Virus record (IMG/VR): IMGVR_UViG_2698536337_000010
Reading direction: 5' to 3' (one strand)
From: a virus
Lineage: Duplodnaviria; Heunggongvirae; Uroviricota; Caudoviricetes
Length of the DNA stretch: 7,739 nucleotides
The notes beneath the pieces are model-generated. The model saw nothing but the letters and a program-made list of their open reading frames with translations, had not been told where the DNA came from and searched no databases. The first letter of the stretch is position 1. Each line of letters starts with the position of its first letter. This document shows, piece after piece, positions 1 to 7,470 of this stretch. The position numbers and the translations under genes were made by a program.

Positions 1-787
<787 letters not shown>

Positions 788-818
788 ATATATATGTATT
801 TTCTCTGTTAAGCGTGAG

Positions 819-871
819 CTACGTGAAAAATAATTTTTGGTGTGGGTATTAACTTTGCTTTATTCACGTAG
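819..871. repeat. Perfect 9-bp inverted repeat CTACGTGAA / TTCACGTAG with a 35-bp spacer, just 3' of the tape-measure stop codon
   Basis: Plus 819-827 CTACGTGAA and 863-871 TTCACGTAG are exact reverse complements. No U-tract follows on either strand, so not a canonical terminator. Confidence 0.5.
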
Positions 872-883
872 AACACCGTTAAA

Positions 884-3064
884 TCATTCTTCCTCTGGAT
901 AGCTTGAACTTAAGAGCATATCCTGCGTGAACTGGTCATTAGCTGATTGATTGAAAGTAAAGAAAGATGGTTCATCTGGTCGAACGACAACTTGACCACC
1001 AAGTGAAACTTTCACTGGCTCCTGAATACGCTTACTCAAAGCACTAATTTCATCCCTCAGACCCTGAATATCTGCACTCGTTAATGCTGAATCTTGCTTA
1101 ATGTTGTTTAACTCTGGATGATTGAATCTTGCAATATTCATTGTGGCATTGTTAAACAATTCACCCATTGAACTAAAAATTCTACTCCATCCTTCGTTAA
1201 TCATATTCGGTTTATTAGGGTCACCAGAATACACGGGATTAAAGTCACTACCCACACCTACCCCAGACGGATGCATATTAGCGTTTTTGACTACTTCCTG
1301 ATTCATAAAATCCAGTGCTTTCTTCAATGCATATAAACCAAGAGTGACGCCTCTGATTTGTGGAATCATTGAAGCTAATGCTAACGCTGTTTCATAACCG
1401 TCATCAGCATAACCAATTGCAAGAGCACTACCTACACCACCAGCTACACCTTTCAGTTTTCCACCACCTTTACCAGTAGCTACCTGACCAGCCACCTGAT
1501 TAGCTCTTGTACCTAACGTTGTGATTGCTCTTGTCAGGTTCATAACCCCTGTAGTAGCACTGAATAGCGTCTTTGCAGATAACGCTATAGCAAGACCTTT
1601 GACGAAGTTGATAAAACCATCACCGACTTCATCAAGTAGTTTTCGTTTAGTGTCATCAAGGCTGTAATAGAACTTCTTAGTCTGTAAAATCCAGCCTTCA
1701 ATGGTGTTATTGAATACGCGAATATCATCTACACCAGCTTTAAGCATGTCGATAAGTCCACCGATAGCATCACCAGCGATAGAAGAACTCATCCCCATTT
1801 CACTAAGCAGGTTACTCAGGCTGGATAAGAAGCCGTTTAGCTCATCCTGTGAACCTGAGAAGATTTTCACCATCGTATCATCCCAATTGTTTGCTAACTT
1901 ACCTAAAGCTGTCTGAGTGCTCTTAGTGACTTCAGCCCAGCCACCCGCTTTATCAATCATCAAGCCCATCTGTTTAGCGACTTTAGGGAGAGTATCAGCG
2001 GAAAGTACCTTCCCGTTTTTCATGGCTGCATCAAGCTCTGTAGCAGTCATACCCAATGCTTCAGCGAATAGCTTAAATGCACCAGCCATACGGTCACCTA
2101 ACTGCCCACGTAATTCCTCAGCCTGAATCTTGCCCTTGCTCGCCATCTGCTCAAATGCTCTCAAAATGCCGTTTAGCTCATCGTTAGAAAGCCCCATTAA
2201 GCGACTCATAGCCGTTGCATTACCAAATAGCTCCTGTGTCTGTTCCTGTGACATAGAACCCTGAGCACCTGCTGCAAACTTAGCGTAGCTTGATAGCCCT
2301 TCAGAGATATTAAGACCTGTCTTGTCTGCTAAATTTCGAATAAATACCTCAGCTTCAGATGCTTTATCACCAAGTACAAACTTAGCGGCTCTCTGTGCGG
2401 AATCTCGTTTAAGACCTGCATTCATAATGGCCTTGTAAGCGTTAAGAGCACCCATCACAGAGTAAAATGCACCAGATAATTTAATCGCATTGCTTGCAAG
2501 ATTATTAAATGCGTCGCTTGTATTGTTAATGCTGGCGGTCTTTGTCTGTGACCTGAGTTTATTCAACGTTTCACGAAGAGATTGATTTAATTTTGCAAGT
2601 TCAGCGTTAAACTTTTCACTTCCAATATTACCAGCCTTACCGCTTAAGCTGTAATACTGTGCTTTAAACATTTTAGCCATCAGCGGATTAATATCACCAA
2701 GCTTAGACATATTCACGCTATGCGCTGCTGTGATTGCTCTGTTTCCGCTAATTCGTGGTTGCCTTGATTGTTTTGGAGGATTAACAGTGTCATTAAATCT
2801 GGTGGCAAACTGAAATGCTTTTGTGCTTCTTGCTCTCTGCTCAATCTTGTCAAAGGTCTTATTAAACTTCCTTTCAAGCTGCCCTAAAGAACTTGTCAGA
2901 TTGCTGTCAAGTTGCTTGGTATCGACCTTAAACGCTCTATTCAAATTGCGTTCAATTCTTTGTGCTGACTGCAAAGCTGCCTTTTCAACTCTTTGCAAGC
3001 CCTTAATAACGTTTTCACTGAAACTAAGTTCAACGATAAAACTATCAACTGTGAATTTGCTCAT
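884..3064 (-). CDS. Phage tail tape-measure protein (726 aa)
   Basis: ATG at 3064 with SD AGAGGTGA 7 nt upstream. Coiled-coil-like N-terminal third; central segment GKIQAEELRGQLGDRMAGAFKLFAEALGMTATELDAAMKNGKVLSADTLPKVAKQMG matches the conserved tape-measure domain as I recall it; Gly-rich hydrophobic segment GKGGGKLKGVAGGVGSALAIGYADDGYETALALASMIP is typical of TMPs. No Walker motifs. Confidence 0.8.
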   Translation of the reverse strand: MSKFTVDSFIVELSFSENVIKGLQRVEKAALQSAQRIERNLNRAFKVDTKQLDSNLTSSLGQLERKFNKTFDKIEQRARSTKAFQFATRFNDTVNPPKQSRQPRISGNRAITAAHSVNMSKLGDINPLMAKMFKAQYYSLSGKAGNIGSEKFNAELAKLNQSLRETLNKLRSQTKTASINNTSDAFNNLASNAIKLSGAFYSVMGALNAYKAIMNAGLKRDSAQRAAKFVLGDKASEAEVFIRNLADKTGLNISEGLSSYAKFAAGAQGSMSQEQTQELFGNATAMSRLMGLSNDELNGILRAFEQMASKGKIQAEELRGQLGDRMAGAFKLFAEALGMTATELDAAMKNGKVLSADTLPKVAKQMGLMIDKAGGWAEVTKSTQTALGKLANNWDDTMVKIFSGSQDELNGFLSSLSNLLSEMGMSSSIAGDAIGGLIDMLKAGVDDIRVFNNTIEGWILQTKKFYYSLDDTKRKLLDEVGDGFINFVKGLAIALSAKTLFSATTGVMNLTRAITTLGTRANQVAGQVATGKGGGKLKGVAGGVGSALAIGYADDGYETALALASMIPQIRGVTLGLYALKKALDFMNQEVVKNANMHPSGVGVGSDFNPVYSGDPNKPNMINEGWSRIFSSMGELFNNATMNIARFNHPELNNIKQDSALTSADIQGLRDEISALSKRIQEPVKVSLGGQVVVRPDEPSFFTFNQSANDQFTQDMLLSSSYPEEE

Positions 3065-3095
3065 TCATGTTTCACCTCTTTAAGTGTTCATATAC

Positions 3096-3137
3096 GAAAA
3101 AGGGAAAGACTACCGATATCACTCGATAATCTCTCCC
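3096..3137 (-). terminator. Candidate intrinsic terminator or attenuator between the 68-aa ORF and the tape-measure gene
   Basis: Minus RNA: GGGAGAGA-u-UAUCG-agugauau-CGGUA-g-UCUUUCCC followed by UUUUUCG. Outer 8-bp stem (one G-U) plus inner 5-bp stem, then a U5 tract, ending about 30 nt before the TMP SD. Confidence 0.4.
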
Positions 3138-3162
3138 GTAGATTTTCACCCAACCAATCTTG

Positions 3163-3369
3163 TTACCTAACCAGATAATAATTACCATCTTCACCAACAA
3201 TCTGACAATCACTTGGTAATTTATCAAGACACCACTTAGCTATTTTCCTGATTCTATTCTTTTGCTTAGAGGAGGTGAATGATTTGATTCGTTTTGGTTT
3301 GTTGGGTTGTTCTTTCAATCGTTCACTAATTGCTTTAATAAGCTCATAGCGTTCTGTTAAATCAATCAT
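3163..3369 (-). CDS. Hypothetical small basic protein (68 aa)
   Basis: ATG at 3369 with SD AAGGTGGTGGTG directly upstream. Lys/Arg-rich middle (KPKRIKSFTSSKQKNRIRKIAKW). No recognisable family. Confidence 0.6.
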   Translation of the reverse strand: MIDLTERYELIKAISERLKEQPNKPKRIKSFTSSKQKNRIRKIAKWCLDKLPSDCQIVGEDGNYYLVR

Positions 3370-3393
3370 TCACCACCACCTTTTAATTATTAA

Positions 3394-4104
3394 TTAAATA
3401 GCCTTTGCATATTTGCTAGAAATCTTCGTAAGCTGCTCAATATCAGCCTGCATAGCAATCTTCTTAGCATCTTCATATTCTTTCACAAGCTCTTTCATAG
3501 CCTGAAGCTCTCTTGAGAGATACAACTTAACATTATCAAGTTGCTTGTTACGTGATGCCAAGATGTTCTGTCTAGCAATTTCAGCGAGTTCTTCATCGCT
3601 CTTATTAGTCATGTAAATAAACTGACCAGCACCTCTTGATGCCTTAACCATCTTCACAATTCGATGTCCAGCAGGAAGACTACTAATCACGGCTGCGACG
3701 TTTTCTTGAAAAGTACCAAAACCATCATTATCTTCGTATTGGTAATAGACAAATGGTTTCTGTGACAATTCATCCTGAATCTCAAATTCTGACGGCTCAA
3801 TAGCTGATTGCATCAAGGTAACTTTGCTGTAAGCGTCATCTAATCTAAGGCGCTGTTCTTTCAGCAGTTGGTAATATTTCTTTTCAAGCTCAAGTAATGC
3901 TTCACTCTTGCAAATATCAGGCATCTCTTGAGGCTCAGGAGACACAAAGATGGTTGTTTTTGGTGACATCTTTAGCGATTGCTCAAGCTCAATACGCTTG
4001 TCATGCTCTTTACGCTGAATAGTGATAGCTGGATGTTCAGTCTGTGGCGACCAGTCACTGAAGCTATCAATCACTTTGCCATTAATGTAAATATCATTTG
4101 TCAT
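3394..4104 (-). CDS. Hypothetical protein (236 aa) with a charged, helical or coiled-coil-like C-terminal third
   Basis: ORF track gives 3394..4152, but 4152 is a GTG. The in-frame ATG at 4104 is preceded by GAGGAA at a good distance, so 4104 is preferred. Same strand as the TMP gene; two stops separate it from the 68-aa ORF. Confidence 0.65.
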   Translation of the reverse strand: MTNDIYINGKVIDSFSDWSPQTEHPAITIQRKEHDKRIELEQSLKMSPKTTIFVSPEPQEMPDICKSEALLELEKKYYQLLKEQRLRLDDAYSKVTLMQSAIEPSEFEIQDELSQKPFVYYQYEDNDGFGTFQENVAAVISSLPAGHRIVKMVKASRGAGQFIYMTNKSDEELAEIARQNILASRNKQLDNVKLYLSRELQAMKELVKEYEDAKKIAMQADIEQLTKISSKYAKAI

Positions 4105-4279
4105 TGCTTTTCCTCTTCTAAGCGGAAGTGTTTCAGTTTTTAAAAAGCACACCTGACAGCCTATCTAAACTTAGAAGAGACTTAAAAGGCGGTTTGCCAA
4201 GTATGCTTTTTAAAAGCTGAATAGCCCTAGATAATTTCTTATAAAGGGCCATTCATAAGGTGAAGAAATTAAAACATCT

Positions 4280-4301
4280 AAAGGATTCAAAAAGGATTCA
4301 A
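4280..4301. repeat. Tandem direct repeat 2 x 11 bp (AAAGGATTCAA AAAGGATTCAA) in a 350-bp non-coding region
   Basis: Exact duplication read directly from the sequence. Nearby inverted repeats ATGACCT/AGGTCAT (4328-4334 / 4351-4357) and ATCATT/AATGAT (4391-4396 / 4404-4409). Confidence 0.6.
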
Positions 4302-4424
4302 ACGAATGAACAAGAGTACTTTTCGAGATGACCTCTCAGACTAACCTGAAAGGTCATGTAGCGAAAAGCATTGCACCTTTCAGAATAACTATCATTGATG
4401 TAGAATGATTAATAGTTTAATTCA

Positions 4425-4441
4425 GGAAGAGTTGCTCTTCC
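4425..4441 (-). terminator. Weak candidate hairpin downstream of the 25-aa ORF (GGAAGAG-ttg-CTCTTCC)
   Basis: Perfect 7-bp inverted repeat with a 3-nt loop, followed on the minus strand by the A/U-rich stretch UGAAUUAAACUAUUA. The short loop and interrupted U-tract make this weak. Confidence 0.2.
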
Positions 4442-4502
4442 CTATTACCATCATCTCATGCTTAAGGTTATTTGTCAACAGCTTTTTAACAGATTGGTAA
4501 CA

Positions 4503-4580
4503 TCAATTCTTATTTACCGTATTACCTACCCAGCAACCAACAAATAACCCTAAAGTCATCCAGAGAATAACGAGTGTCAT
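4503..4580 (-). CDS. Possible 25-aa hydrophobic micro-peptide (MTLVILWMTLGLFVGCWVGNTVNKN), translationally coupled to the upstream 101-aa ORF
   Basis: Not in the ORF track (too short). ATG at 4580 overlaps the TAA of the 101-aa ORF (TAATG). SD GAGGTG lies 5 nt upstream inside the upstream gene. About 18 contiguous hydrophobic residues, enough for one transmembrane helix. Confidence 0.35.
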   Translation of the reverse strand: MTLVILWMTLGLFVGCWVGNTVNKN

Positions 4581-4885
4581 TACATCACCTCGCTGTAAGG
4601 GTTTAATTCATTCTGATAGGTCAAGAATACATTCAGCTTCAATAATTGCTCAGGGCTTAAATCAAGTCGATTGCACTCTTCAATGATAAAGCGCTTATTG
4701 TATGGGTCTGTTACTTCCAGCTTGTGAACATAGTCACCAAGTTTAATTTCGTTGATTATATGCTTGTCAATATACGTTGACGCTTCAAAACAATGCATGA
4801 AATAGATATTAAAGCCCGACCTGTTCAGGTCAATCAACCAATTCATGGTTTCTTGGTCAACCATAATTTGCATTGGGTAATTCAT
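4580..4885 (-). CDS. Hypothetical protein (101 aa)
   Basis: ATG at 4885 with SD AAGGA 8 nt upstream. No recognisable motif. Confidence 0.6.
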   Translation of the reverse strand: MNYPMQIMVDQETMNWLIDLNRSGFNIYFMHCFEASTYIDKHIINEIKLGDYVHKLEVTDPYNKRFIIEECNRLDLSPEQLLKLNVFLTYQNELNPYSEVM

Positions 4886-5031
4886 TTTTAAAATCCTTCC
4901 TGTATCGCATTCTAAGACGTTTTAACCCCTTTTTTAGACCACTTAAGGCGATTCCCTAAGTTACCCTGATTAGGGGCTTAAAAACGTTTCTGGTGCGTCT
5001 GGTAAAGCCTGAGAGATATGTTTTGCTGTTT

Positions 5032-5895: not shown

Positions 5896-6072
5896 ATGCA
5901 TGATTTTTTCACAGCAATTATTGAATCTCATCGTTTTAGCTCGTTGGGCTTTGCGGTATTTATTGTGCTATTGGTGTTTTGCGTTATGAATCGAGTCATT
6001 ACAAAAAAGACAAAGCTTACAATTCGACTTAAACTTCTTCGTGTTGAGATAGAGATTTCAGTAAATAAATAG
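5896..6072 (+). CDS. Small single-pass membrane protein (58 aa), the only plus-strand gene in the window
   Basis: Track ORF 5866..6072 starts at a GTG too close to the predicted transcript start; ATG 5896 has a proper SD. Sequence MHDFFTAIIESHRFSSLGFAVFIVLLVFCVMNRVITKKTKLTIRLKLLRVEIEISVNK has one roughly 18-residue hydrophobic helix followed by a basic tail. Its 3' end overlaps the convergent minus-strand gene by 15 bp. Confidence 0.5.
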   Translation: MHDFFTAIIESHRFSSLGFAVFIVLLVFCVMNRVITKKTKLTIRLKLLRVEIEISVNK

Positions 6073-6456
6073 CTGGTGGACTGAATCCCATAAATCGTAA
6101 TGATACAGCACCGCAAACTTCAAAGCGTCAATCTTTAAATCTGTCACATCATCGACGAAATAATAATCCCTCCCTTCTTTCTTCGGTCGAATCCGNNNNN
6201 NNNNNNNNNNNNNNNNNNNNNNNNNNNNNNNNNNNNNNNNNNNNNNNNNNNNNNNNNNNNNNNNNNNNNNNNNNNNNNNNNNNNNNNNNNNNNNNNNNNN
6301 NNNNNNNNNNNNNNNNNNNNNNNNNNNNNNNNNNNNNNNNNNNNNNNNNNNNNNNNNNNNNNNNNNNNNNNNNNTCATCAAGTAACCTTCACGAGAAATG
6401 CTGTAACGTCTGAGTAAATAGTCACGGTATTTTCTCTCGCCATTATAAGTTTTCAT
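6058..6456 (-). CDS. Hypothetical protein interrupted by an assembly gap, in the position a lambda P-like partner gene would occupy
   Basis: ATG at 6456 overlaps the TAA of the replication gene (TAATG), using the GGAGGA inside the upstream gene's last codons as SD. Only 27 N-terminal and 45 C-terminal residues are real sequence. Frame continuity across the N run is not evidence the two pieces are one gene. Confidence 0.35.
   Translation of the reverse strand: MKTYNGERKYRDYLLRRYSISREGYLMXXXXXXXXXXXXXXXXXXXXXXXXXXXXXXXXXXXXXXXXXXXXXXXXXXXXXXXXXXXXRIRPKKEGRDYYFVDDVTDLKIDALKFAVLYHYDLWDSVHQLFIY
6196..6374. other. Assembly or scaffold gap (179 N)
   Basis: Uninterrupted run of n characters. Confidence 0.99.
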
Positions 6457-7409
6457 TAAAACATTCCTCCACCATAAACACGTCTGACTTTAACTTTTTC
6501 TTTCTTTGGCTCGGTGTGAGTTTTCTTTTTTGGTGTAAAAGTAAAATCATCGTCACTATCATCAAAGTCATCGAGGTCACTAACCTTGTTCTTTAGCTTC
6601 GCATTTCTGAATCTTTCTTTAATTTCTGCTTTACGCTGTTCACGTTTCAATTCCTTTTCAGGGTCTTCTTCATCATCAAGGTCAACATCCGGTAATTCAT
6701 CATCAGTGGCGGGGCACTGTGTGTTTTTATGGTCACTACTAGCAATCACATCAGAGATTTTATCTTCCTTTTTAACGACCTCTTTAGCAGCTTCACTATC
6801 AAGGTCATCTAAGTCAGATGTTTTAACAGTCTCTTTAATAGCCTCTTCAATACCAAGAGAATCACATTCATGTGAATCACAGAGCGAAGCTCCCTTCTTA
6901 AAATATTCTTCTTCAAAGTCATCTTCTTTATTGTTATTAATAAGTTCTTTCTTGTTATTACTGTTATTATACGTGTCAAAGATTTTGACTGACTGAGTAA
7001 AAAATTTTGACTCAGTGGGTAAAGAATTTTGACTCAGTGGGTCATCTTTCTTGACTGACTGAGTAACTTTAGACTCCAGCTTTGCCTTTCTGGCTTCCTT
7101 AGCTGTAAGCTCTGTTAAAACCTCCGGTACTTCATCAAGTGAATAAACTTTAATAACACACTGATTGCTTGCAACGTTAGTTTTCTTGATTAAACCATGT
7201 GCCTCAAGTTGTTTCATACATGCAATCACGGATGTTCTTGTGATTCCAGCATACTGACCAAGATGAGCATATGAAGGGGTATAATATTGCCCCTTATCGT
7301 GATAAAACTTTTGTTCATTCAACATGACAGTGTAAATAATACGGTCGGCAGCTTTAACGCCATTAGTCATCTGATAAATACGGTCATCAAACATGTGGAA
7401 TTTTTCCAT
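6456..7409 (-). CDS. Replication initiator (lambda O / replisome-organiser-like, 317 aa): N-terminal helix-turn-helix domain plus a long acidic low-complexity C-terminal region
   Basis: ATG at 7409 with SD AAAGGAAAA (the track's 7466 start is a TTG lying inside a terminator hairpin). N-terminal about 100 aa contain an HTH-like segment (YAHLGQYAGITRTSVIACMKQLEAHGLIKK). The gene contains an iteron array and AT-rich tract. C-terminal about 200 aa are D/E/K-rich with repeated SDLDD-like motifs. Confidence 0.75.
   Translation of the reverse strand: MEKFHMFDDRIYQMTNGVKAADRIIYTVMLNEQKFYHDKGQYYTPSYAHLGQYAGITRTSVIACMKQLEAHGLIKKTNVASNQCVIKVYSLDEVPEVLTELTAKEARKAKLESKVTQSVKKDDPLSQNSLPTESKFFTQSVKIFDTYNNSNNKKELINNNKEDDFEEEYFKKGASLCDSHECDSLGIEEAIKETVKTSDLDDLDSEAAKEVVKKEDKISDVIASSDHKNTQCPATDDELPDVDLDDEEDPEKELKREQRKAEIKERFRNAKLKNKVSDLDDFDDSDDDFTFTPKKKTHTEPKKEKVKVRRVYGGGMF
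6983..7070. repeat. Four 22-bp phased iterons (origin-like) inside the replication initiator gene, flanked by an AT-rich tract (about 6900-6982)
   Basis: TTGACT cores at 6985, 7007, 7029 and 7051, exactly 22 bp apart. Units are TTTTGACTGACTGAGTAAAAAA / TTTTGACTCAGTGGGTAAAGAA / TTTTGACTCAGTGGGTCATCTT / TCTTGACTGACTGAGTAACTTT, an A-B-B-A arrangement in which A and B contain mutually inverted ACTGAGT / ACTCAGT cores. Confidence 0.7.
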
Positions 7410-7423
7410 TATATTTTCCTTTT

Positions 7424-7470
7424 TAAAAATAAAACAAAGAAAGGGCTGACCACGTATAGTGACCAACCCC
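7424..7470 (-). terminator. Intrinsic-terminator-like hairpin plus U-tract immediately upstream of the replication gene (tR1-like position)
   Basis: Minus RNA: GGGUUGGUCAC-uauac-GUGGUCAGCCC (11 bp including 3 G-U pairs) followed by UUUCUUUGUUUUAUUUUU, ending about 15 nt before the SD of the replication gene. The G-U pairs become C-A mismatches on the plus strand, so the element is minus-strand specific. Confidence 0.5.

Follow-up and report, generated by a model that had tools for sequence, protein, structure and literature searches.

The window analyzed here, a 7,739-nucleotide stretch of virus record IMGVR_UViG_2698536337_000010, carries two adjacent genes, encoding proteins of 236 and 68 amino acids (aa), next to a gene for a phage tape-measure protein (TMP). 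Our results reveal that this window is the core of an ~11-kb chromosomal island in Escherichia coli, Shigella, and Citrobacter. The gene pair was found in every intact island examined, those of Citrobacter included, and in no phage genome; it is restricted to the island. Judged by its anatomy only, the island is a putative satellite of FelixO1-type (Felixounavirus) lytic myophages, similar to the PLEs (elements like phage-inducible chromosomal islands) of Vibrio cholerae. The searches described below indicate that the pair is neither a set of phage tail-assembly chaperones (TACs) nor a transposase. By analogy with PLEs, we tentatively suggest that the two proteins are helper-directed factors of tail-assembly selectivity or interference that favor the satellite's own TMP and tube initiator (TI), a role that we regard as possible though short of probable.

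A gene pair restricted to a chromosomal island

The following features of the window are central to the argument.

3394..4104, minus strand: gene for the 236-aa protein; ATG at 4104, stop TAA at 3396-3394; acidic product
3370..3393, minus strand: spacer between the 236-aa and 68-aa genes, 24 nt; in-frame TGA at 3372-3370; ribosome-binding site (RBS) AGGTGGTG for the 68-aa ATG
3163..3369, minus strand: gene for the 68-aa protein; ATG at 3369, stop at 3165-3163; basic product
884..3064, minus strand: tape-measure gene, 726 aa; Pfam TMP_3 2e-21, TIGR02675 1.7e-15, phrog_4036 4e-93
34..727, minus strand: tube-initiator (Dit_like) gene, a homolog of FelixO1 gp68 and Bas63 gp18; a pseudogene here

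Islands of this type are common and share one plan. The window was matched in 533 of 5426 complete E. coli genomes, almost always on the chromosome, and the pair was matched in 402 complete E. coli genomes at 60% to 99% identity. In a search of 185,579 species representatives with the TI as bait, the species recovered were limited to E. albertii, a Citrobacter, and S. flexneri; protein names extend the range of the pair's family to Salmonella and E. marmotae. The islands occupy at least three insertion sites (wrbA/ymdF, tonB/yciI, and msyB/lpxL). A large serine recombinase (~507 to 548 aa) lies at one end, on the strand opposite to the remaining genes, and is followed by the baseplate protein (TI), the TMP, the 68-aa family, the 236-aa family, four to five small open reading frames (ORFs), a helix-turn-helix (HTH) Rep, a Dam methylase, and a small serine recombinase. 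A sequence-only reading of this DNA had considered that the pair might be an unrelated accessory insertion. Comparison with related islands did not bear this out, as the pair proved to be core and universally syntenic.

The same reading had placed the pair in a phage tail module, which was a mistaken premise: the island holds only a TMP and a TI from phage. The phage-like part of the window is limited to positions 268-3073, where patches of 71 to 97% nucleotide identity to Felixounavirus genomes lie under gp67 and gp68, and the window upstream of 3073 matched no phage. Among all island proteins, only the TMP and the TI have counterparts in the 1,262 six-frame ORFs of FelixO1. The island TMP is 32% identical overall to Felixounavirus gp67, with the N-terminal ~45 aa kept at 75%, a central core of ~40 aa at 80%, and the last 10 aa (LLSSSYPEEE) unchanged; the remainder is 7 to 45% identical. 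The island TMP is a mosaic mimic of gp67, with the pattern expected for docking into helper-made parts. Island TMP alleles range from 679 to 726 aa and from 36 to 97% identity, and intact island TI copies are 59 to 75% identical to gp68 and match Pfam Dit_like. According to the cryo-electron microscopy (cryo-EM) study of phage Bas63, the gene that follows the TMP is that of the tube initiator, and the TMP touches both hub and puncture apparatus with its C-terminal 25 residues (PMC12609058).

Such an anatomy is that of a PLE-like satellite: a small integrated element with an integrase and a Rep, devoid of most virion genes, and carrying genes that appear adapted to a helper, namely the contact regions of the TMP and the TI. 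From it we infer both the satellite lifestyle and the identity of the helper. We found no paper in the searchable literature that links a satellite to Felixounavirus, and the island appears to be undescribed there.

The copy in the window belongs to S. sonnei and is decayed. Its TI gene carries a 74-nt deletion that shifts the frame after codon 49, the 3' end of this pseudogene abuts sequence resembling an insertion sequence (IS), and IS1/IS21 lie downstream. Because an IS3-family element interrupts the large serine recombinase in S. sonnei chromosomes, we consider this copy to be immobilized; the 236-aa, 68-aa, and TMP ORFs are still intact. Window bases 1 to ~45 resemble the end of an IS and have matches in unannotated plasmid sequence from Shigella and E. 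coli. A different disruption is seen in island L034 (Citrobacter sp. ANG330, 3868-7908), where the TMP gene is split (3868-4992 and 7132-7908) by an insertion of ~2.1 kb. The TMP of the V. cholerae phage ICP1 is known to be interrupted by an intron or a homing endonuclease gene.

All sizeable ORFs of the window lie on the minus strand, and their coordinates bear out the claim that the 236-aa and 68-aa ORFs sit directly upstream of the tape-measure gene. The span of 3163-4152 first proposed for the pair is right at its lower end. Its upper end is not; position 4152 is the GTG start of a program-called 252-aa ORF. We place the true start of the 236-aa gene at 4104, because a GAGGAA-type RBS followed by an ATG, giving proteins of 233 to 249 aa, is kept in 17 related loci. 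At 90%-identity clustering, database relatives form 3119 clusters for the 236-aa protein and 59 for the 68-aa protein. The median ratio of nonsynonymous to synonymous substitution (dN/dS) is 0.27 for the 236-aa gene and 0.34 for the 68-aa gene; the tape measure stands at 0.27 and the gene after it at 0.17. Given these cluster counts and ratios, along with motifs that are kept across 25 to 42% identity, both ORFs are genes in their own right and not chance ORFs, and the ratios of ~0.3 indicate that purifying selection acts on both proteins.

Two proteins outside known families

The pair had been described as unrecognized, and it stayed so in profile and structure searches and in a search of phage genomes. 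Neither the two proteins nor members of their families matched anything in Pfam, PHROG, NCBIfam, PADLOC, the Protein Data Bank (PDB), or a fold search. In tblastn at E <= 1, neither protein matched any of 50,697 phage genomes. Profile hidden Markov models of the families found nothing among the 1,262 six-frame ORFs of FelixO1, nor did a search of that phage for KYAKAI-like C-terminal mimicry of the CpmB kind. Sequence-profile searches of the PDB with the pair returned chance coiled-coil matches only.

The 236-aa protein is acidic (isoelectric point [pI] 5.3; family pI 4.9 to 6.2, family length 231 to 249 aa) and is identical to a Shigella sonnei protein. A HMMER search of 1.8 billion representatives placed its family in five full-length 50%-identity clusters that share 27 to 42% identity, all in this island type. 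Invariant across these clusters are P56 and E57, K76, E112, D127, G128 and G130, I140, P144 and G146, and, at the C terminus, a K-A tail. An AlphaFold2 (AF2) model of the protein (predicted local distance difference test [pLDDT] 75.7 overall and ~90 over residues 70-210) places a disordered and variable segment at 1-65, a helix at 66-100, an alpha/beta domain at 106-166, a second long helix at 170-219, in agreement with the helical C terminus proposed earlier, and the conserved C-terminal KYAKAI tail. The invariant NDGxG and LPxGxR motifs fall within the alpha/beta domain, which is ~60 aa long. The predicted fold is thus an antiparallel coiled-coil hairpin with a small globular alpha/beta tip.

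The 68-aa protein is basic, as had been noted (pI 9.7), and so is its family (62 to 72 aa, pI 9.4 to 10.6). Its model (pLDDT 73) predicts a helix at 5-20, a Lys/Arg-rich linker, and a small beta-alpha-beta-beta C-terminal domain in which W46, C47, D49, P52, D54, Q56, and G59 are invariant across the family. This small beta-rich domain has no neighbor in the PDB.

Position alone would lead one to expect a chaperone. FelixO1, the source of the adjacent TMP, has at the equivalent position a canonical TAC pair, gp65/gp66, joined by a T_TTT_TTC -1 frameshift site, so that the two island genes do occupy the expected slot. The two island ORFs share a frame and are separated by two stops (TAA at 3396-3394 and TGA at 3372-3370). 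This observation holds in the window and has no wider meaning: we take the shared frame to be coincidental, because the offset between the genes is 0, 1, or 2 depending on the island. Spacers in other islands are 15 to 24 nt long and contain an RBS, and an unrelated ORF (91 aa in L029) sits between the genes of the two families in island L029 as well as in some E. coli genomes. The absence of a slippery site, already remarked upon, was confirmed by a scan of 4160..3050 for heptamers and alternative frames. Both ORFs lack an in-frame X XXY YYZ heptamer as well as any homopolymer of six or more, and in the -1 frame of this interval every open stretch is shorter than 25 codons. This absence carries weight, because the same scanner recovers the known signal in FelixO1, that is, T_TTT_TTC at codon 120 of gp65 together with a 92-aa -1 extension into gp66. 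With no signal and a variable frame offset, a programmed frameshift or read-through linking the two proteins was ruled out.

Evidence of homology to chaperones was equally absent. Alignment of the pair with FelixO1 gp65 and gp66 by hhalign gave a probability of 0.1%. The TAC families in Pfam, PHROGs, and NCBIfam matched neither the window proteins nor 6 and 22 divergent members of their families, and PDB-wide profile searches returned no TAC, even though the TACs of PLE1 (5IR0) and HK97 (2OB9) were included. Nor does the coiled-coil hairpin modeled for the 236-aa protein resemble a TAC fold. The suggestion that the pair is a diverged chaperone is disfavored by these results and by a lack of co-variation with the TMP, which is presented below; frameshift, profile, fold, and co-variation each fail to identify a TAC of the gpG/gpGT type. 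Likewise, neither protein could be matched with confidence to chaperone, major tail, or scaffold families.

The 236-aa family already has a name in public databases. Most of the 120 clusters listed for it, along with RefSeq annotations, are called "transposase," and a transposase would be the reading to adopt if the product name given by NCBI/PGAP were taken at face value. The database name is what speaks for it, and we give it practically no credence. Six diverse members contain no transposase or recombinase domain from Pfam, NCBIfam, or PHROG. The predicted hairpin with its ~60-aa alpha/beta domain lacks the catalytic architecture of DDE, HUH, serine, or tyrosine enzymes. In addition, there are no terminal inverted repeats, and the 236-aa gene is always single copy and at a fixed position within the island. 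The NCBI product name therefore appears to be wrong.

Gating, allele assortment, and the function of the pair

The genes of the pair are arranged in the order sigma70 promoter, structured leader, 236-aa gene, 68-aa gene, conserved terminator, TMP, and TI. The regulatory elements of the window are as follows.

4450..4478, minus strand: sigma70-type promoter; TTGACA, 17-nt spacer, TG-extended GATGAT; conserved in 17 aligned loci
4105..4449, minus strand: structured leader (~341 nt); minimum free energy -111 kcal/mol versus -72 +/- 5 for shuffled sequences, z = -7.5
4139..4214, minus strand: long terminator-like hairpin and T-run ending the leader
4179..4170, minus strand: anti-Shine-Dalgarno (anti-SD) element CTCTTCTAAG, in the loop of the leader hairpin, 10-11 nt
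4122..4113, minus strand: Shine-Dalgarno (SD) region CTTAGAAGAG of the 236-aa gene, complementary to anti-SD CTCTTCTAAG
3092..3137, minus strand: intrinsic-terminator-like hairpin between the 68-aa and TMP genes; 15-bp stem, 6-nt loop, then TTTTTCGTAT

The nearly invariant promoter drives the unit made up of leader, 236-aa gene, and 68-aa gene from a position ~345 nt ahead of the 236-aa ATG, and it has CATAAT as its -10 element in most other islands. In the leader, the SD and anti-SD elements covary over three allele types (CTCTTCTAAG/CTTAGAAGAG, TTCACCTC/GAGGTGAA, and TCTAAGTGT/ACACTTAGA). An Rfam scan of the window gave sub-threshold noise only. The leader matches no family and could be a riboregulator or attenuator of an undescribed kind. 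The second element, downstream of the pair, is a hairpin of 13 to 16 bp followed by T5-8 across islands, with nine distinct sequences and folding energies of -20 to -22 kcal/mol. The search pattern picked it up in 15 of 16 scanned loci, L005 being missed although its fold shows a hairpin, and inspection by eye added L027 and L029. Compensatory changes occur in 5 of 10 consensus pairs, and the stem of L029 is entirely different. We propose that this terminator is a gate in front of the TMP and TI. Because only 27 to 125 nt (27 nt in L007) separate it from the TMP ATG, a TMP promoter of its own would have no room. From the two terminator-like gates and the lack of such a promoter, we infer that the pair and the TMP-TI genes form one operon, which implies read-through upon induction.

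This layout raises the question of whether the pair regulates its own operon. For example, the 68-aa protein could be an N-like antiterminator or RNA-binding activator that carries transcription through the terminator, with the 236-aa protein as a co-factor or an infection sensor. The pair is indeed bracketed by a leader hairpin with an anti-SD and by a conserved terminator, the TMP-TI genes have no room for a promoter of their own, and the 68-aa protein contains a disordered segment rich in Lys and Arg. Moreover, the succession of leader, first genes, terminator, and late genes resembles that of phage lambda, whose leftward operon reads PL-nutL-N-tL1. Yet, the basic linker of the 68-aa protein is poorly conserved, and the protein has no recognizable RNA- or DNA-binding fold. 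A coiled-coil hairpin is not a known regulator architecture, and the terminator stems vary so freely that a sequence-specific RNA target is not evident. We consider such a regulatory role distinctly unlikely.

Alleles of the island genes assort in ways that bear on the partners of the pair. The islands are highly mosaic: compared with the window, L006 has a 90%-identical TMP and a 27%-identical 236-aa protein, and L004 shows the reverse (42% and 89%). Among 16 loci, distances for the 236-aa protein and the TMP were uncorrelated (Mantel rho -0.02, p = 0.53), and no 60-column segment of the TMP exceeded |0.11|. For the 68-aa protein and the TMP, rho was 0.14 (p = 0.11; 16 loci), and the maximum over TMP segments (0.32) was at the physically nearest segment, as linkage predicts. 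The two proteins of the pair were modestly correlated with one another (Mantel rho 0.26, p = 0.01; 16 loci), and the TMP was correlated with the TI (Spearman rho 0.55; 14 loci with an intact TI, 91 locus pairs). Median pairwise identity was 28 to 29% for the 236-aa protein, 45 to 49% for the TMP, 71 to 73% for the TI, 76 to 77% for the 68-aa protein, and 90% for the recombinase. The 236-aa protein is the most diverged of these five, with 18 to 29% identity between allele types.

The large serine recombinase covaried with neither the 236-aa protein (rho -0.08, p = 0.70) nor the 68-aa protein (rho 0.19, p = 0.25) in 11 loci. This result concerns the idea that one or both proteins are recombination directionality factors (RDFs) for that enzyme. 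The island uses a large serine recombinase for which no RDF has been identified, and the two proteins have fitting sizes, as known RDFs fall into a basic class of ~58 to 73 aa (SprB/Orf7) and a class of ~244 to 255 aa (gp3/gp47). In addition to the lack of co-variation, however, the genes are ~3 kb from the recombinase in an operon of late type, and the RDF of PLEs is supplied by the helper. An RDF is highly improbable on these grounds. More generally, the independent assortment of the 236-aa gene from both the TMP and the recombinase argues against a chaperone-client pair and an RDF-integrase pair, and it is compatible with an external partner, for example a factor of the helper or the host, better than with a dedicated chaperone.

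A chaperone function without homology deserves separate consideration. One or both proteins could be a nonhomologous replacement for the TAC that coats and stabilizes the island TMP without a frameshift. In all islands, the pair immediately precedes the TMP within one operon, the helper's TAC is at the equivalent position, and PLEs carry a TAC, a TMP, and a baseplate hub (BhuB) together. Because the body of the island TMP is only 7 to 45% identical to that of the helper, the TAC of the helper might fail to serve it. TACs are acidic, and so is the 236-aa protein. Nevertheless, the absence of a -1 frame, the hhalign probability of 0.1% against gp65/gp66, and the lack of a TAC in PDB, PHROGs, and Pfam searches all run counter to this idea, as does the finding that neither gene covaries with the whole TMP, exemplified by L006. 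Furthermore, the helper-like N-terminal and central TMP blocks could bind the helper's own TAC. On balance, a replacement of this kind seems rather unlikely.

Independent assortment from the tail genes would also suit a role in capsid or packaging redirection. The 236-aa protein could be a scaffold like Sid, TcaP, or CpmB or a factor like the small terminase, with the 68-aa protein as a DNA-binding partner, which would let an 11-kb genome use the packaging machinery of an 86-kb phage. The island has no recognizable capsid, terminase, or pac function, so that specificity must come from something. The helical hairpin and the size of the 236-aa protein resemble external scaffolds (Sid of P4 is 244 aa) and the oligomerization cores of small terminases, and the 68-aa protein is strongly basic. 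Against this, there was no PHROG or Pfam match to Sid, scaffold, or small-terminase families, no C-terminal mimicry of any FelixO1 protein, and no predicted HTH, the N terminus being disordered. The pair is also placed with tail genes. We therefore find redirection of packaging, including the proposed use of the helper's machinery, quite unlikely.

The reading that we tentatively favor is that of tail-assembly selectivity or interference, and it draws on a precedent. PLEs are satellites of the lytic myophage ICP1 that use a large serine recombinase and encode a TMP, a TAC, and a baseplate hub of their own (PMC12987554). Experiments reported in 2026 (Mathur, Boyd et al., Nature) showed that the resulting chimeric tails exclude the TMP and hub of ICP1 (PMC12987554). 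In PLE11, an 80-aa orphan protein, Rta, blocks ICP1 tail assembly, and the phage escapes by substitutions in its TMP (PMC12987554). A two-protein cassette directed at the TMP, Tab/anti-Tab, is known from Pseudomonas phage JBD26 (PMC10884400). We favor a comparable role because the island shares only a TMP and a TI with FelixO1, because its TMP resembles gp67 only at the contact regions, and because the pair is universal in and exclusive to the island, is in one operon with TMP-TI, assorts independently, and shows modest co-variation between its two members, as well as because of the PLE precedent. Under this scenario, infection by the helper would open the gates of the operon. The acidic 236-aa protein, with its basic 68-aa partner, would bind a component of the helper's tail core, be it the TMP, the gp65/gp66 chaperone, or the tube initiator. 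The TMP and TI of the island, in versions that would keep only the helper-contacting N terminus, central core, and C terminus, would then be built into tails that are otherwise made by the helper. The role of the pair would resemble the selectivity or interference of Rta or Tab/anti-Tab and not that of a classical chaperone.

Several points weigh against a tail-directed role. Synteny with the tail genes counts for little, given that the island is collinear throughout. Independent assortment is not specific to tails and fits capsid, packaging, or regulatory roles equally. With dN/dS at ~0.3, gene-wide positive selection was not seen for either gene, a result that does not speak for an arms race. 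The fold search with the 236-aa model returned generic coiled-coil hairpins only. Rta is an accessory protein of PLE11 only and is expressed before infection, whereas the pair is core and appears to be transcriptionally and translationally gated. Finally, satellite behavior and the identity of the helper are themselves presumed from anatomy.

Taken together, our observations allow a broader proposal, which we regard as doubtful in its full extent: that the islands are an undescribed family of satellites of virulent Felixounavirus in ~7 to 10% of E. coli genomes, that the pair are tail-hijacking factors of novel fold that would force a mimic TMP and TI into helper tails or block the helper's own, and that a leader riboregulator and a read-through gate would control them.

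Other features of the islands merit mention. A motif, ATTGGTTGGGT (window 3148-3158, minus strand), stands directly after the 68-aa stop in most E. coli-type islands, and a similar one, AATTGGTTGG, lies within the terminator loop of L003. An iteron was rejected for this TTGGTTGGGT motif, which is present in one copy only in the window; it could mark a conserved junction of recombination or a site at which a protein binds. Upstream of the promoter, a hydrophobic mini-ORF of 25 codons (MTLVILWMTLGLFVGCWVGNTVNKN; window 4503-4580, minus strand) overlaps the stop of a 101-aa gene (TAATG). It occurs in nearly all islands, reading MGLIIAWTALGLFVGCWVGNTVNKN in others, and could encode a small membrane peptide for lysis, toxicity, or exclusion. 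Some island variants, such as L006 (8616-8903) and L008 (4956-5243), have among their small genes upstream of the pair a 95-aa ORF with an HNH-like motif, HRNGNRADTRPKNL, that the window variant lacks. The replication gene of the window is the following.

6456-7466, minus strand: Rep-like HTH protein, 336 aa; PHROG replication-initiator families 1.6e-10; weak DnaD_N

The C-terminal half of this protein is an extremely acidic, lysine-rich tail of low complexity. Other islands carry unrelated proteins of 185 or 285 aa in its place, which suggests swapping of replicon modules, by analogy with the RepA_N swapping described for PLEs and for the satellites of Barth et al. The ORF at 6456..6058, which follows the Rep-like gene, is broken by 179 consecutive N of masked sequence (window 6196-6374), and its translation is mostly X.

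Comparison with known systems

Canonical TACs (lambda gpG/gpGT, FelixO1 gp65/gp66, PLE1 5IR0, and HK97 2OB9) resemble the pair in their location upstream of the TMP, in consisting of two adjacent ORFs of small to medium size, and in the acidity of the larger product. The pair differs from them in having no frameshift signal, no profile similarity, no co-variation with the TMP, and another predicted fold. Moreover, its second protein is basic, and a terminator separates it from the TMP.

By analogy only, Tab/anti-Tab is a closer parallel, as a two-protein cassette on a mobile element that acts against TMP-dependent tail assembly and spares the element's own tails. Its genes are prophage encoded, however, and Tab is constitutively expressed.

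Satellites with tail genes have been predicted in E. coli before. Barth et al. describe 224 predicted E. coli satellites with TMP and baseplate genes that are linked to Justusliebigvirus (PMC10055350). They share with the present island a host in E. coli, a similar size (~13 kb), a Rep, a TMP with a baseplate component, the absence of most tail genes, and, for a subset, a serine recombinase (PMC10055350). Their helpers are Stephanstirmvirinae, whereas the TMP and TI of the island derive from Felixounavirus (Ounavirinae). They also encode a decoration protein along with a major capsid protein, and their integrases are mostly tyrosine enzymes beside tRNAs; capsid genes are absent from the island. 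The text of their supplement, with Table S6 covered in part only, contains none of five accessions of this island (PMC10055350).

The closest relatives in organization are the PLEs. Both are small islands with a large serine recombinase and a Rep, apparent parasites of a lytic myophage, and carriers of a diverged TMP and one baseplate-core protein without the bulk of the tail genes. Small orphan proteins stand beside the tail genes in both, and Rta is likewise an orphan restricted to satellites. The hosts of the present island are Escherichia, Shigella, and Citrobacter, however, its presumed helper is a Felixounavirus, and it is ~11 kb long compared with ~18 kb for a PLE. Its baseplate gene is a tube initiator (Dit_like) and that of PLE a hub, and its TAC slot is filled by the 236/68 pair, without detectable similarity to solved TACs. 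Rta is accessory and expressed beforehand, and the pair is core and gated; the two are likened by description only. Tail-core modules of satellites are thus already known from PLEs. As far as the searchable literature shows, a Felixounavirus-linked island with a serine recombinase, an orphan pair, and a leader riboregulator is undescribed.

Phages of the FelixO1 type are used in typing, biocontrol, and therapy of Salmonella and E. coli, and an island present in ~7 to 10% of E. coli genomes may interfere with their tails. For PLEs, the published account describes it as unknown how the TMP of the satellite comes to be incorporated selectively (PMC12987554). The island offers a second, tractable system for chimeric tails in which selective incorporation is directly testable, because its presumed helpers, FelixO1 and BASEL phage Bas63, the latter with a cryo-EM structure, are well studied and easily handled.

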